This document shows positions 7,224 to 57,075 of a stretch of 64,000 nucleotides of DNA, one piece after another. The stretch covers positions 15,989 through 79,988 of the forward strand of contig JAJQEC010000093.1 of assembly GCA_021201815.1 (NCBI GenBank). Direction: 5' to 3'. Made by a program: the position numbers and the translations under genes. The notes under the pieces were generated by a model. The model was not told the origin of the DNA. It did not search any database and saw only the letters and a program-made list of their open reading frames with translations. This DNA is from Candidatus Azobacteroides sp. Lineage in GTDB: Bacteria > Bacteroidota > Bacteroidia > Bacteroidales > WRGA01. How positions within the stretch are numbered: the stretch's first letter is position 1; each line of letters opens with the position of its first letter.

Positions 7224-10200
7224 TCATACCACAAGTCCTTTTCCTGTCTGCATGGGTTCCTCCAGGAGGTTGAACGGCATGGACCAGTAATAGGTGGCAT
7301 TGTAGTACTTCTCATTCTGTGGGTTTGCCATGCGGTAGTACATCCAGTATACGTGCGGGGTGCGTCCCCATGCGGAAGCGTTGGGGTTGTAGCCGTTGAC
7401 ATAATAGTCGCCGGTGTACATGTAACGCAGCGGGGAAGCGAGCATGTTCCACCTGTCGGGATCGAGCGTGAGGTTCACTTTGGCGGCATTGTAGTCGAGC
7501 AGGTGTGTCCTTGCTACTTCTGCACCGTGCATAAACTCAATGGTATCGCATCGTGCTGCGTTTTCATCCGTTAAGGGCAAATCAAGGACAGGATAGTGAT
7601 CCGCCTGCTCCGGAATGGTCACATAGGTACATTTTCCCGGTATCCCGTTGTTCCAGTTTTCCGTGTCTTCCCAGTTGCTACCGGCTATCCCTGTCCATTC
7701 GCTTCTTGCCGGGTCGATGTACACCTGCACGTACAGCTCCTGCGGGGTACAACCTGCGGTTGCTGCCGGGTCCCTGTCCAGGGTCAGTTTCAGGGTTTGC
7801 GTCTGCATCCCCCCGTTCAGGCTGGCATCCAGCGGATAGGTATAAGTTGTCTGTGGGTCAGCCGGGTCTGAGAACTGCCCGCTCCCGGGCGTTGACCATG
7901 TGTACCCGTAATTGCCGATGGCCGGGTCTCCGATGGCCAGCGCGCTTCCCTGGCACATGCGGTATTGTGTGGTTGCCAGCTCATAGGTGACCTCCTTTTT
8001 GACAAAGGCGCTGTCGCAGAGGAAGCGGTTGATCCCGCTCTGGCATGGCATTACGAGCATCAGGTGGCAGGTCTCATCGGCGGAAAGGGTTTCGATAATG
8101 ATTTCCAGGTCCGCCTGGTCCCCCGATACGAGATCCAGTGTGAAGAGCGGGGCGGAGAGCAGCTGTGTATCCTCTTCATCATATACCCCGTTTTGATTGG
8201 CATCCTTATACAGGTAGCATTCCGCCCCCTGCATATCATGCACCCCGTTGTTTTTCACAGAAGCATTTATCTTTAACCTTCCGGCATTCGCTTCATAATC
8301 ATAATACTCTGTGAATTGCACGCTGTCGGCAAGGAGCTCGAGGTTGTACTTTTCCAGGGTGAAGGTGTACAAGGTGGAAAGGGTGGAGTAATCCAGCTTG
8401 CAGGGCTCGGGATCTGCCGGGTCACAGAACATCTCGATGTTCACCACGCTACCTATCTCAATATTGTAAGTGCCGCAGTTCCAAGCCTGTGGGTTTACGA
8501 TCCTCACATCCAGCTCGAACTCGTATGCCGTCGGGTTGTCTTCGGTATTGTTGAAATTAGCCCGGTAGAGGTTCCTTGAGTAAACGAAGCTGGAAGTAGC
8601 GCCCCCGCTGCCGCTACCGCCTGTCCTTTCGAAGCGGTTTACCCCGCCCGGGAGCAGCTCCATGTTTTCAGGCAGTCGAAGTGTTGCCTGCCCTTCTACG
8701 TTCGATTTTGTTGTCTGGTAGGTGAATACCCCCTTTAGTTTGAAGGTGCCGTCCGCTTCTTCCAGGTAAGAATATACGGGCCCTGTGCTGTTGTCCTTTG
8801 CCTTTTCCATGGAGAAGGAGGTAAGCTGGGATTGCGGGTTGTCGTTCTCGTCATATCCCGAGAGGCGTATATTGCCTGTTGCCACGTTCTTTTGCTCTGT
8901 GAGTTCGCACATGCTGGTTCCTATCACATCCATGTACACGGGAAGGCCGAAGAGGAAATCGCACAAGGGGGAAATGGTGAAGTTTACCACGATGTTATCC
9001 CCGGCTTCATCCCTTGGTGCCAGTTGCACGGAGGCAGGCAGTTTGATAAGGATAAAGCTTTCCTGGGAATCGTCAATCAGCCAGGTATCGTCGTATGGGT
9101 AAGTGACCCCATCCTGTGTATAGGAGATGGAGGTTGCCGGGTCTTCAAGCACCAGTGCGCTTGCCGCATCCCTTGCCACCTTTAGCTGCAGGTCCCCTGC
9201 CGGAGCATAGAGGTTGTTTTGGAAGGTGACGGCAAAGGGTGCGGGCTCGCAAAGCACGAATTTCCCGTCCGCATCCATCCCTGCGCTTTCATCCACCGTG
9301 CCGGAGAAGTCCATCATGTAAAAGGTACCGGACAGAGACAGGGTAGGGTAATCCTGGAAACAGTTCGTATAGTTATACTGGGAAAATCCGGTGTAAGGAT
9401 CATCCGGGTAAGAAATTGAACTTACTGCAAATTTTGCATTCAGATGTACTATGTTGTTTATCCTGCAATCCTGCTGTTTGCCTTTCAGGAGAAAGTCTGC
9501 CGTAGAATTTGCGTTTGCTGCATATTCCCCTTCTATTTCTCCTATTTTTATCCAGTAGGACCGGTATCCGGGACGTCCGGCATATTCCTCGAAGGGGGCA
9601 TCGACTTTTACCTCCTGCCCTGCTGTGACCCGGTAGAGTTCAAATTCCTCTATCTCCCCTTCGCTTACCTCGAGCATCAGGTAAGTATAAGGCATTTTAT
9701 AATCAGGGCCATCCGGATTGCTGGCATAGGCCCATTGAGAACCGTTGTTCAATGTGAGTGGCCAGTTGAAAGTCCCGTCCGATGAGGTATGTGAGGAAGC
9801 AGTAGTAGTTGTGGTAATATACCATCGGGAATGGGAAAAAGGATAAAGGTTTACACTATATCTGCTGCTTCTGGTAGGATTTTCAGAAGTGGGATATTTT
9901 GTTATATACAGATCGGTTATTGAACAAACAGTGGTGCTGGTTGTTATGCACACTCCCCGTAATTCTGCAAATATATAGTACGTATGGACTCCTTCTTCCC
10001 CTGCGGAAGTATCATCGGCTTCGTTGTAATATTCCCCGGTATATGCGTTCAGGCCCTCATGGAAAGTAACAATGGTACCGGTCGGTTGATGGGTAACAGT
10101 ATAATCCGTGCCTTCATAAAACTCCCGGCCTTCACTGTCGTACATCCGGTCAATGTCTATGGTCCAGTAGGTGATACCGGTACCTGCCCCATTCCATACG

Positions 10201-18287: not shown

Positions 18288-18842
18288 ATGAACGAACAAA
18301 TTAAACAAATAGCAAACCGGCTGAAAGGGCTGAGAGAGTCTTTGGACCTTTCCCAGGAAGAAATGGCTACCCGTTGCGGAAAGACAACGAATGAGATCGA
18401 TTTGTACGAATCGGGAATGATCGATATCCCGCTGAGTTTCTTATTTGATGTCGCTCAGAATTTTCATATCGAAACTTCCACGCTGATTTCCGGAGATGAA
18501 CCGAGAATGAATTCTTATTATGTGACCCGGAAAGGAAAAGGAGTTTCTATTGAAAGAACGAAGGCGTACAAATACCAGACACTGGCAAGCGGGTTTAAAA
18601 ATCCGAAGGTGGAGCCTTATGAGGTTACCGTAGAGCCGAATGACAATGCTATTTATATGAATATGCATACCGGTCAGGAACTTAATCTGGTGTTGGAAGG
18701 GAAATTACAGTTCCGGATTAATGATAAAGACTTAATTCTGGAAGAAGGTGATTGTGTATACTTTGATTCCAGTTTTCCTCATGGAATGAAGGCACTCGGC
18801 GGGAAAAAAGTAAGGTTTCTGGCTGTCGTTGTCCCTCAATAA
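18288..18842 (+). CDS. XRE-family helix-turn-helix transcriptional regulator with C-terminal cupin domain
   Basis: 184-aa ORF. N-terminal HTH (IANRLKGLRESLDLSQEEMATRCGKTTNEIDLYESG). C-terminal cupin-like GDCVYFDSSFPHGMKALG. Confidence 0.8.
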   Translation: MNEQIKQIANRLKGLRESLDLSQEEMATRCGKTTNEIDLYESGMIDIPLSFLFDVAQNFHIETSTLISGDEPRMNSYYVTRKGKGVSIERTKAYKYQTLASGFKNPKVEPYEVTVEPNDNAIYMNMHTGQELNLVLEGKLQFRINDKDLILEEGDCVYFDSSFPHGMKALGGKKVRFLAVVVPQ

Positions 18843-53369: not shown

Positions 53370-53597
53370 TTATCCTCTCATTTCATGTTCACTGAAAAGA
53401 GTCGGATAGTCATCTGTGAGACGTTGAAAAACTGCATGTATAACGGTATCTCTTACCCAATGGGAACGATTTGTGATCTTATATTTCGCCATATAATGAC
53501 AAATCGTTTTGTACTCCTCATCATTAAACATAATGGTTACTTTATGTTTTCTGGGTAAAGGATAACGGTTTTTCCTTATGGTAGGCTTTTTCTTCAT
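53370..53597 (-). CDS. Small basic protein of unknown function
   Basis: Start chosen at MKKKPTIRKNRYPLP (ATG 53597..53595), preceded by a TATTTTTG box. The longer track ORF would overlap the divergent yraN-like gene. Confidence 0.5.
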   Translation of the reverse strand: MKKKPTIRKNRYPLPRKHKVTIMFNDEEYKTICHYMAKYKITNRSHWVRDTVIHAVFQRLTDDYPTLFSEHEMRG

Positions 53598-54312: not shown

Positions 54313-55788
54313 ATGGGAACTATTATTTTGTTTATTCTTATTCTTTATTTTGCTTTCCTTACATGTATCTCTTTTTTAACAAGTAGAAACAATTCAGGTA
54401 ACGATGCTTTTTTTCTAGGCAACAGAAAATCCCCGTGGTATGTGGTTGCTTTTGGTATGATCGGTTCTTCCCTTTCGGGAGTAACCTTTATTTCAGTACC
54501 TGGCATGGTACGGGAAACGGATATGACCTATATGCAGATGATCTTTGGTTTCTTCTTCGGATATGCTGTTATTGCCTTTGTATTACTTCCTCTATATTAT
54601 AAACTTAATCTGACAACTATTTACGGATACCTTGATCAGCGTTTTGGGAAAAGAGCTTATAAAACGGGAGCTTCTTTTTTTATATTATCGAAAACGATTG
54701 GTGCTGCTGCCCGTCTTTATCTGGTTACTTTGATTTTACACAAACTGGTTTTTAGCCAGTGGAATATTCCTTTTTATTTAGTGACACTGGGAATTATCGG
54801 ATTAATCTGGATCTACACTTTCCGGAGTGGAATTAAAACAATTATCTGGACGGATGCCTTACAGACATGTTGCCTGATTGCTGCTTTAATTCTTATTATA
54901 TGGCAGGTGATTAATAAATTAGGGATTGACTTTTCCACTTCTTTTTCTCTTATTTTCCAAAGTGAATACTCCCGTATTTTCGTTTTCGATGACTGGATGT
55001 CAAAACAACATTTTGTAAAGCAGTTTTTCAGTGGGGTATTGATTGCGATTGTAATGAATGGACTGGACCAGGATATGATGCAGAAAAACCTCACCTGTAA
55101 AAACCTGAAAGACGCTCAGAAAAACATGCTAAGCTTCGGATTCCTGTATATTCCCATTAATTATCTGTTTTTATGTTTGGGGGTCTTATTGCTATTTTTT
55201 GCTTCGAAGTTTCAGGTTGCTTTACCCGAAAAGTCAGATGAGATTCTTCCTTTACTGGCTTCGGAATATTTAGGATTTCCTGTCCTTGTCTTTTTTTCTA
55301 TTGGAATTATCGCTGCTGCTTTTTCCAGTGCCGACTCCGCATTAACTTCTCTTACTACAACAATCTGTGTCGATCTGCTGGATATTAAAAAAGCAGATGC
55401 CATACAATCGGTTAAAATAAGAAGAAAAATTCATTTATTAATCAGTTTTCTTTTCCTGTTTGTCATCTTAATAATTGACAATGCCGGACAAACCAGTATT
55501 CTGAATACCATTTATAAGGTAGCTTCTTATACCTACGGTCCTTTATTGGGAATGTTTTTCTTTGGATTGTTTACTAAGATTTCCGTTAAGGATAAAAACA
55601 TTCCCTTCGTTTGTATACTTGCCCCGGTCCTATGCGTTGGACTGGAGTTGCTTTTGAATTACTCTTTCCATTATCAGGTCGGAAATGAAATTCTTCTGCT
55701 TAATGGCCTGTTGACTGTAATCGGTTTATTGAGTGTATCTGTTTTCAAAAGAAAAAGCAAGTCAAAAATATTTCAGAACAGAAAATAA
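54313..55788 (+). CDS. Sodium:solute symporter family transporter
   Basis: 491-aa polytopic ORF with SSS-family character (…GNRKSPWYVVAFGMIGSSLSGVTFISVPG…). Confidence 0.8.
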   Translation: MGTIILFILILYFAFLTCISFLTSRNNSGNDAFFLGNRKSPWYVVAFGMIGSSLSGVTFISVPGMVRETDMTYMQMIFGFFFGYAVIAFVLLPLYYKLNLTTIYGYLDQRFGKRAYKTGASFFILSKTIGAAARLYLVTLILHKLVFSQWNIPFYLVTLGIIGLIWIYTFRSGIKTIIWTDALQTCCLIAALILIIWQVINKLGIDFSTSFSLIFQSEYSRIFVFDDWMSKQHFVKQFFSGVLIAIVMNGLDQDMMQKNLTCKNLKDAQKNMLSFGFLYIPINYLFLCLGVLLLFFASKFQVALPEKSDEILPLLASEYLGFPVLVFFSIGIIAAAFSSADSALTSLTTTICVDLLDIKKADAIQSVKIRRKIHLLISFLFLFVILIIDNAGQTSILNTIYKVASYTYGPLLGMFFFGLFTKISVKDKNIPFVCILAPVLCVGLELLLNYSFHYQVGNEILLLNGLLTVIGLLSVSVFKRKSKSKIFQNRK

Positions 55789-56037
55789 ATAGGGAATTAG
55801 GTTAGCTTTATTAAGAACCTGTTCAGGGGTAATTTCGCTGATTAGCTTTTCTTTTTTCAGAAAGAATTCTCTTAAACGTAGTGTTTTTACTGTGTTTCAT
55901 AAGGTATATTAACATATTTGTTTTTATTAAATCTTATGCATTTTTATGGGAAACAGGCTCGTTACTTATTAAAAATTCACTCTCTTTTAGTCCCAATCCC
56001 ATTTCCTCAAGACCTTTTAAAACGTTCTTTACAAAAA

Positions 56038-56070
56038 TTGTGTGTTTCTGATGAACACACAATTTTTTTT
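56038..56070 (+). terminator. Rho-independent terminator (stem ttgtgtgtt / aacacacaa, then T8)
   Basis: 9-bp perfect stem with a 7-nt loop followed by eight T, read directly. Preceded by A5, so possibly bidirectional. Confidence 0.6.
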
Positions 56071-56099
56071 CTCCTTCCTGCTCCCCTATCTTTGCAGGG

Positions 56100-56366
56100 A
56101 TCATTTTAATAAAAAACCTTTGAAGATGCAAGTTAACACTATTACAAACTTAAAAAATACATTCCCTGTGTCTATCCCATGTGTTCCCGGAATAAAAAAA
56201 GAAACGTTTAAAAGGATTACTCTTTCCGGGAAAAAGAATAAAATGTCCCTAAGGAAGAAATAATAATTTCGACACCATATATCTTTCGGTCTGCAACTCC
56301 TTTGATAAAGGGATCCGGAGGATAAGCAGAGCGGGTAGTGCCAGTGGGCGCTATCCGCCTTTTTTT
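56100..56366 (+). ncRNA. Candidate small RNA or small-protein transcript bounded by a TATCTTTG -7 box (56087..56094) and a hairpin+T7 terminator (56331..56366)
   Basis: Promoter-like box immediately after the previous terminator. gcgggtag / ctatccgc stem followed by ttttttt. No ORF of 60 aa or more with convincing character; a 45-codon basic ORF (MQVNTITNLKNTF...) lies inside. Confidence 0.25.
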
Positions 56367-56412
56367 GCCCTGAATTATGTTAAAAACTCCGGCGAACTCT
56401 TTGCAGGATTCA

Positions 56413-56544
56413 TTTGACCTCTGCAAAGAAGTCGGGTGATCTCTGCAAAGAAGTGGGGTGACCTCTTTAAAGAGGTAGGGTGATCTCTGCAAAGAGGTAA
56501 GGTGAATCTTGCAAAGAGGTGAGGTGAACACTGCATAGAGATAA
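56413..56544. repeat. Six contiguous 22-bp direct repeats, each an imperfect palindrome (consensus GGTGATCTCTGCAAAGAGGTRG)
   Basis: Unit starts at 56413, 56435, 56457, 56479, 56501 and 56523 (exact 22-bp period). Unit 3 contains the perfect 16-bp palindrome ACCTCTTTAAAGAGGT. Confidence 0.9.
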
Positions 56545-57075
56545 TTTTGAGGCAAAAAAATGAAAAAAAGGTGTTTTTTTGACGGAAAAAACTATTGATA
56601 ACAGTGTTTTTTTGTCTTTAATTAAATAAAAATTTATATTTTGTAAATCTTTGTTTAATTGTAAGCATGAAAAATAATCTTATACGGAGCTATTCAGGAG
56701 GCATTTTCCGGGAATTTCCATAGAACGTTACCGGAGTGATGGATTTGTTTTAAGCGAACGGGAGTTCCGGTTCAGGAAAAAAGGAGTGACTTTTTATTAT
56801 TCGTTCGGTAACGTCATGGTTTTTGACCTAATCTCACTTTTGACGAAAGCAACAAGGAAAGGTTAGACAAGAAATAACGATTCGGTTAACAAAAAAGCGG
56901 AAAGGAGTTATCTACGGTTAAATACCCAGAGGAACAGGGTTTGCTTCCGATAAAATAATCAGTATCCATAAGCCTTAATCGGTTGATAAAATCTTTCTTT
57001 TTCATTCTTTTATAATGTATAAAAATAATATTTAATAAAATAAATAAGCAAAAACTTAAATACAAACTTGTTGGA

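Follow-up and report, generated by a model that had tools for sequence, protein, structure and literature searches.

The partition centromere sopC of the F plasmid is built of twelve 43-bp repeats, each with a short inverted repeat, while the OR and OL operators of phage lambda are 17-bp pseudo-palindromes that recur with a period of 23–24 bp, and the ToxI antitoxin consists of 5.5 repeats of 36 nt. REP/BIME elements are typically found between convergent genes, and VNTR-105 and VNTR-141 of Wolbachia are intergenic VNTR loci of a host-associated bacterium with a decaying genome. In the plasmids pPS10 and pSC101, the rep genes have an autoregulatory operator formed by an inverted partial copy of the iteron. 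In the origins of such plasmids, iterons, which are direct repeats of 17–22 bp, occur together with DnaA boxes and a DNA-unwinding element, and a Rep initiator serves the origin; the iterons of R6K and pPS10 are 22 bp long and are arranged as contiguous direct repeats (PMC4980987).

The array described here lies in a window (the whole stretch of DNA that was analysed, 64 kb long) which is a segment of a Bacteroidales chromosome. Re-reading of the sequence gave six contiguous 22-bp units starting at 56413, 56435, 56457, 56479, 56501 and 56523, letter for letter as in the preliminary description. Together they form a tandem array of direct repeats on the + strand at 56413–56544, with the consensus GGTGAYCTCTGCAAAGAGGTAG, which was also recovered by a repeat search and by Tandem Repeats Finder (56415–56540, period 22, 5.7 copies, 82% matches); the score of 138 returned by the latter is the highest in the window. 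The units keep an exact 22-nt register, the spacing being 22 in all five intervals, with zero indels; units 2–4, in the centre, depart least from the consensus, and units 1, 5 and 6 depart from it more. The array is real and non-random; with up to three mismatches allowed, the consensus 22-mer has three matches in the window, all of them within the array, and none in 100 dinucleotide shuffles. The core of the array unit reads TGCAAAGARGTNNGGTGA, and the 12-nt core of the unit has no other occurrence on the same strand of the window. A seventh, degenerate unit (56391–56412, + strand), which we term invB, abuts unit 1 in register and is 67% identical, but its core has the opposite sense to that of the array (TTTGCAG instead of CTGCAAA), so that it is an inverted copy of the unit, aligned over 56393–56414 as the reverse complement. 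The eight repeat copies, which include a solitary inverted copy discussed below, conserve T3 G4 A5, T10, A13 and A15 G16 A17, a pattern that is asymmetric about the dyad and that, with so few copies, does not discriminate between the models considered here.

The array is housed in an ORF-free spacer of 1287 bp (55789–57075), between an SSF symporter gene (54313–55788, + strand) and an ABC exporter gene (57076–58857, − strand), which are convergent. No other ORF-free stretch of the window is as long, if one ORF that covers the repeats, and that we treat as spurious, is left aside. The ORF in question, of 112 amino acids, spans a terminator and is not called in the Logan assemblies, and a coding repeat was likewise rejected, because the 22-bp period is not divisible by 3. 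A decayed gene in the spacer was also rejected: its six-frame pieces gave no Pfam match, and a blastx comparison with 5941 ORFs, taken from the related loci that were fetched, revealed no trace of one. The tRNA and tmRNA scan found none, and Rfam, at both gathering and relaxed thresholds, returned nothing credible, the best match, BTnc201, scoring 19.9 bits where the gathering score is 105.

Both the unit and the spacer were compared with other genomes. No further copies of the unit were found in the rest of the window or in the ∼6 kb beyond its left end, and neither unit nor spacer was found in 80 GTDB loci with a homologue of the symporter, in the six closest-relative loci (L113–L118, which include two syntenic Azobacteroides-like contigs), or in the 1.16 Mb of fetched loci as a whole. 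A two-unit pattern gave isolated single matches and no arrays in the JGI metagenomes and IMG/VR, and nothing relevant was found in PLSDB (72 556 plasmids) or in a phage collection (50 697 phages). The preliminary description had named uniqueness and lack of conservation among the marks of a neutral minisatellite, and the array is both unique and unconserved as far as these data reach, that is, across the window, the relatives and the metagenome, plasmid and phage searches. Sampling of the lineage is poor, the next-best symporter being 73–74% identical and the next-best ABC exporter 86% identical in amino-acid sequence (in L113), and no closer informative sister sequence was found in the collections searched. 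In L113, the closest relative found, the symporter and the ABC exporter are also convergent, with their stop codons only 8 bp apart (7461–7470 of that locus), and therefore the whole 1287-bp spacer is a lineage-specific gain.

The identical array, in the same orientation, is present in four independent assemblies, namely that of the window itself, SRR15221351, SRR15221322 (ending at 56649, and so covering part of the spacer) and SRR15221362. These differ by two SNPs in 13.5 kb; they therefore represent one strain, and are uninformative on polymorphism. The SRR15221322 assembly breaks ∼105 bp past the array, in an AT-rich tract, one contig ending at 56649 and the next beginning at 56677, where the assemblies from other samples are continuous; coverage, AT-richness and heterogeneity are all candidate causes of the break.

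We tentatively favour the view, which we rate a little short of an even chance, that slippage or unequal exchange built up the array as a lineage-specific intergenic minisatellite, starting from a seed that carried a dyad and was related to the solitary inverted copy. The preliminary description had drawn a resemblance to plasmid iterons. Formally this resemblance stands, in the length and arrangement of the repeats and in the inverted copies, one of them over a promoter-like box; membership of the plasmid iterons, on the other hand, is unsupported. As in an iteron origin there are several direct repeats within the 17–22-bp range, six plus one degenerate, with a period of exactly 22. However, a gene for a Rep (winged-helix) initiator was absent from the genes of the window, and the six-frame pieces of the spacer gave no Pfam match to one. 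No DnaA box (TTATCCACA) with one mismatch or fewer occurs between 47.9 and 59.4 kb, and at two mismatches there are five in the spacer against 5.2 expected, which is no enrichment. The array does not reside on a plasmid or other autonomous replicon, being flanked by housekeeping genes and having no PLSDB match; it sits on a 90-kb contig with lysS, pgi, gpsA, leuB and tadA around it. Nor is this a chromosomal oriC, a candidate we rejected since there is no cluster of DnaA boxes and since the changes in sign of the GC skew follow gene orientation. Genes of the parA/parB type, which would accompany a partition centromere, are absent from the window. We conclude that the array is neither a plasmid replication origin nor a centromere.

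A weaker form of the same idea would have the array as a relic, left by the control region of an integrated plasmid, phage or mobile element, of which the repeats and an inverted operator survived while rep or par was deleted. The format of the R6K and pPS10 iterons (PMC4980987) is shared by the array, with its six to seven direct repeats of 22 bp in unbroken succession; the partial copy that lies inverted over a promoter box resembles the operator by which a rep gene regulates itself, an AT-rich tract with runs of A and T adjoins the array, and the 1.29 kb of the spacer is an insertion relative to L113. Set against these points, no remnant of rep or par was found in any frame, DnaA boxes are neither present at one mismatch or fewer (47.9–59.4 kb) nor enriched at two, the plasmid and phage collections gave no similarity, and an integrase, a tRNA and convincing flanking direct repeats are all lacking; moreover, iterons are normally asymmetric rather than dyadic. 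The att-like direct repeats flanking the spacer (at 55718 and 56976) were rejected, as they have only TAATCGGTT in common, the remainder being AT-rich noise. We therefore regard a relic as quite improbable.

The preliminary description assigned a dyad core to every unit. In unit 3 this is indeed a perfect 16-bp palindrome (ACCTCTTTAAAGAGGT, 56461–56476), but the dyads of the other five units are imperfect. The consensus dyad has the form 6-N4-6 (ACCTCT-N4-AGAGGT), and over the six units 83% of the positions of the 6-bp stem pair, a fraction equal to the shuffle mean. Treating the six units as an alignment, we found compensatory changes at none of the six stem pairs. The hairpins of single units are weak (0 to −4.2 kcal·mol−1 as DNA), and units 2, 5 and 6 fold no better than shuffles. 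On both strands the array as a whole folds into a single long, imperfect hairpin with unit 3 at its centre (z-scores of −4.4 and −5.5 against shuffles), but such a fold arises automatically when a quasi-palindrome is repeated beside an inverted copy. There is no sign of selection for a hairpin.

These folds bear on the proposal of a structural role in DNA or RNA. The array would form either tandem RNA hairpins on the + strand with GNRA (GCAA) loops or a long hairpin or cruciform centred on unit 3, and, much as REP/BIME elements do, would provide the convergent genes with a transcriptional barrier, an insulator or a 3′ stabilizer. The loops do read GCAA on the + strand in four of the six units, the array as a whole folds far better than shuffles on both strands, and a spacer between convergent genes is the typical place of a REP/BIME. 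However, the lack of compensatory change, the marginal single hairpins and the automatic nature of the long fold all speak against it, neither strand has a promoter box directed into the array, and just upstream there is a strong terminator. In addition, REP families are made up of many dispersed copies, whereas here there is one locus in the 64-kb window plus ∼6 kb, and Rfam has no match. We consider a structural role very improbable. The likeness of GGTGATC and AAAGAGGT to Shine–Dalgarno sequences is regarded as a coincidence of a purine-rich palindrome.

Inverted partial copies reading ctctttgcagg had been placed at 56397 and at 56088 in the preliminary description. The first (56397–56407) is exact and lies within invB, while the second (56088–56098) reads atctttgcagg, with one mismatch. 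The latter belongs to a solitary inverted copy on the − strand at 56085–56106 (TCTTTGCAGGGATCATTT), ∼310 bp upstream of the array, which was identified by a repeat search with shuffles and is referred to here as invA. The similarity between invA and invB extends beyond the stretch first noted: TCTTTGCAGGGATCATTT (56089–56106) and TCTTTGCAGGATTCATTT (56398–56415) form an 18-nt direct pair that is 89% identical, a score reached in only one of 500 shuffles. Furthermore, 56089–56103, within invA, is complementary at 14 of 15 positions to units 2 and 4.

This last relationship raises the question of an inverton, in which 56089–56103 would recombine with unit 2 or unit 4 (56437–56451 or 56481–56495), and the flipped segment of 333–377 bp, carrying a terminator, would switch what a promoter at 56087 reads. 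A segment of a few hundred base pairs is indeed bracketed by inverted repeats, and the arms of 15 nt, complementary at 14 of 15 positions and with 333 or 377 nt between them, have a typical Bacteroidales inverton geometry; the break in one assembly ∼105 bp past the array could be taken in the same sense. However, the orientation is the same in all four assemblies (of one strain), the window has no recombinase gene, the promoter box overlaps the left arm instead of lying inside the segment, and invertons are not known to carry a tandem run of adjoining copies at one end. The support thus comes down to the 15-nt inverted repeats, and an inverton at this position is hardly to be expected.

The spacer has further features on either side of the array. 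A hairpin at 56033–56067, found in the repeat and terminator searches 245 nt after the symporter stop codon, has a perfect 14-bp stem flanked by an A run and a T run, and looks like a bidirectional terminator. A second hairpin, on the + strand at 56331–56368, found in the terminator search and resembling a strong intrinsic terminator, has a 12-bp stem with eight G–C pairs followed by T7, and ends ∼25 nt before invB. The −7 consensus of Bacteroides promoters is TAnnTTTG, and two putative boxes of this type, identified by consensus match, touch copies of the repeat: TAtcTTTG (56087–56094, + strand) overlaps invA, and TAATTTTG (56542–56549, + strand) begins in the last 3 nt of unit 6 and is directed away from the array. 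The consensus occurs 73 times in the window on both strands together, or ∼0.57 per kb per strand, so that two boxes touching repeat copies would be an unlikely coincidence, suggestive of a connection, though one spotted post hoc. Directly 3′ of the array is an AT-rich tract with phased A and T runs (56545–56680), seen in the sequence and in the GC profile; the GC content is 27% in 56500–56699, but a high AT content is general for the intergenic DNA here, and repeated 13-mers were absent. Tandem Bacteroidetes promoters formed by the minus-strand units were rejected, because none of the units, inspected by eye, matches TAnnTTTG.

The 56087 box and the 56331–56368 hairpin would bound a putative orphan transcript of ∼270 nt (56100–56370, + strand), which has no Rfam family. 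A small protein in this transcript was rejected, as its 45-amino-acid ORF has no genuine homologues, matching only repetitive giant proteins, and no NCBIfam match. Neither of the two putative transcripts is supported by its fold, the z-scores being only −1.8 and −1.3.

The main rival reading is that the array may be a functional operator- or UAS-like element, to which a putative protein encoded elsewhere would bind cooperatively at six or seven sites two helical turns apart. The solitary inverted site at 56085–56106 would be bound too, and binding would control both the 56087 box, with its terminated transcript of ∼270 nt, and the 56542 box. The strict 22-bp spacing with zero indels and the dyad core of the consensus agree with this, as does the position of the array between a strong terminator and the 56542 box, which is typical of upstream regulatory sites; invA overlaps one −7 box and the other starts in the last unit, at the low density given above, although this was noticed post hoc. 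Against it, only one of the six units has a perfect dyad, the motif turned up at no second locus, and downstream there is no conserved product, as judged from the 45-amino-acid ORF, Rfam and the fold z-scores. A regulator is also wanting nearby. The preliminary description had reported no replication, partition or regulator gene adjacent to the array, and the Pfam context bears this out: genes for rep, par, recombinase, integrase or toxN functions are absent from the 64-kb window, and there is no regulator gene within 2.7 kb of the array. The nearest DNA-binding genes encode a 75-amino-acid, weakly MobC_2-like protein 2.8 kb away and a Fur-family protein 6.7 kb away (63257–63694); an HU-HIG protein (15653–16252) and an HTH-cupin protein (18288–18842), encoded elsewhere in the window, are further candidate binders. 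Taken together, these points make an operator rather unlikely in our view. A more specific version is less likely still, and we would be surprised if it held: that the six to seven phased units and invA are the operator set of a putative lineage-specific protein of an uncultured termite-gut symbiont. Such a protein would gate a pair of orphan promoters of the Bacteroidetes type and, through them, a locus for a small non-coding RNA, the whole being a self-contained module inserted between convergent housekeeping genes, with the geometry of plasmid iterons but without a replicon.

The gene for the 75-amino-acid protein (53370–53597, − strand) gave a sub-threshold, ribbon-helix-helix-like match to MobC_2 (E-value of 0.0016)/Bacteroides MobA. 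Only two homologues were found, both on Azobacteroides-like contigs, and the gene order is always yraN, the 75-amino-acid gene, tadA; the product is a lineage-restricted small putative DNA-binding protein. As a binding partner of the array it was rejected, because this synteny is kept in the two Azobacteroides-like contigs without the array, and there is therefore no linkage between the two.

The other genes of the window include mnmA, leuB, pgi, gpsA, lysS, tadA, yraN, the SSF symporter, the ABC exporter, a glutamate-decarboxylase-like gene and hsp20, as well as comM, fur, sufB, T9SS cargo genes and others. The proteins flanking the array carry the NCBI name 'MAG: Candidatus Azobacteroides sp.'. 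The comM gene (Mg-chelatase-like; 61345–62886, − strand) has an in-frame stop (…SGYSFPRK*IIVNMAPADIRKEG…), which splits it into ORFs of 61 and 447 amino acids. The same split is present in independent assemblies (L119 and L120), and this is therefore a real nonsense mutation or a pseudogene. The crude coding fraction is ∼82%. With the comM stop, this marks a genome in decay, where non-functional DNA may plausibly persist. Elsewhere in the window, a second degenerate tandem cluster at 16291–16480, with periods of 11, 22 and 33 and CGTTGAGCGTT-like units, is unrelated to the 22-bp array; it occupies a divergent spacer directly upstream of an HU-HIG (HU-domain) gene (15653–16252, − strand), opposite sufB. 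A GC-rich block at ∼6000–12 800 (49–53% GC, compared with ∼37% elsewhere) contains ORFs of 1866 and 440 amino acids without a Pfam match, beside proteins with a T9SS C-terminal sorting domain, and may represent foreign or repetitive surface-protein genes.

Returning to the minisatellite, we propose that a 22-bp segment with a short 6-N4-6 dyad would have been amplified head-to-tail, by replication slippage or unequal recombination, in the additional 1.29 kb of non-coding sequence that separates the two convergent housekeeping genes on the chromosome of an uncultured Azobacteroides-like Bacteroidales. The copies would since have drifted to ∼82% identity, with the edge units decaying most. The seed sequence may have been related to the neighbouring promoter-proximal site invA, which would also account for the inverted partial copies. 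We favour this reading because the array is unique in all the collections searched, because the whole spacer is lineage-specific, and because neither a partner gene nor a remnant of one was found by Pfam, six-frame or blastx comparison. The absence of covariation and the weakness of the single-unit hairpins count in the same direction, as do the central units being most alike and the edges most decayed, the usual pattern of arrays that turn over by unequal exchange; gene decay, seen in the comM stop and the ∼82% coding fraction, would let non-functional DNA persist. In keeping with a minisatellite, the copies are head-to-tail and imperfect and lie in non-coding DNA; the copy number is identical in the four assemblies, all of one strain.

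Some observations do sit less easily with a minisatellite. The 22-bp register has been kept without an indel through ∼18% substitution; the dispersed inverted copies are not made by slippage alone; and the boxes at invA and at the edge of the array hint at something beyond slippage. The longest ORF-free stretch of the window could, moreover, have a function such as RNA genes, and neutrality is not demonstrable from one lineage. The array is at present without a demonstrable sequence-specific role, and we infer from the evidence above that it may have arisen by slippage and may be neutral.

Whichever reading holds, there is no longer reason to suppose that this chromosome hides a plasmid origin or a centromere. 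If the array is a minisatellite, it would be of use mainly as a marker for strain typing, and would be one more sign of relaxed genome streamlining in the Azobacteroides-like symbionts. If it is bound by a protein, it would illustrate phased multi-site regulation in compact form for the Bacteroidota, a phylum whose transcription-factor operators and small-RNA promoters are poorly charted.

Among the known systems, the R6K gamma origin, with seven 22-bp units, and pPS10, with four, are like the array in consisting of contiguous 22-bp direct repeats, here in six to seven copies, and the adjoining AT-rich tract is iteron-like also, as is the partial copy lying inverted over a promoter-like box, which recalls the autoregulation of rep genes. 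In contrast to R6K and pPS10, however, the array has no Rep gene or remnant, no DnaA boxes and no plasmid similarity, and its context is chromosomal; its units carry an internal dyad, whereas iterons are asymmetric sites for monomers. The sopC centromere of F shares with it tandem units that each have a short dyad suited to a dimeric binder, but has a different period, is carried on a plasmid and is accompanied by sopA/sopB, while the window has neither these nor parA/parB. The operator arrays of phage and plasmid repressors likewise consist of imperfect palindromes about two helical turns apart that overlap or abut promoter elements; compared with lambda OR and OL, the present array has six to seven contiguous sites, and has no repressor gene, prophage genes or divergent promoters that drive genes. 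Enterobacterial REP/BIME elements are also imperfect palindromes clustered in the spacers of convergent genes, but their families have many dispersed copies in alternating orientation, as opposed to one head-to-tail locus in ∼70 kb. The repeats of ToxI antitoxins, like those of the array, are short tandem repeats in non-coding DNA, but the unit here is 22 rather than 35–45 nt, the terminator lies ahead of the array rather than behind it, and no ORF or Pfam remnant of a ToxN/AbiQ-type toxin was found downstream of it. Copy-number polymorphism is the hallmark of a VNTR, and here one strain was sampled; in its other features the array can be set beside Wolbachia VNTR-105 and VNTR-141, which are likewise lineage-specific intergenic tandem repeats of partly palindromic units, with no associated gene, in a genome that carries pseudogenes.
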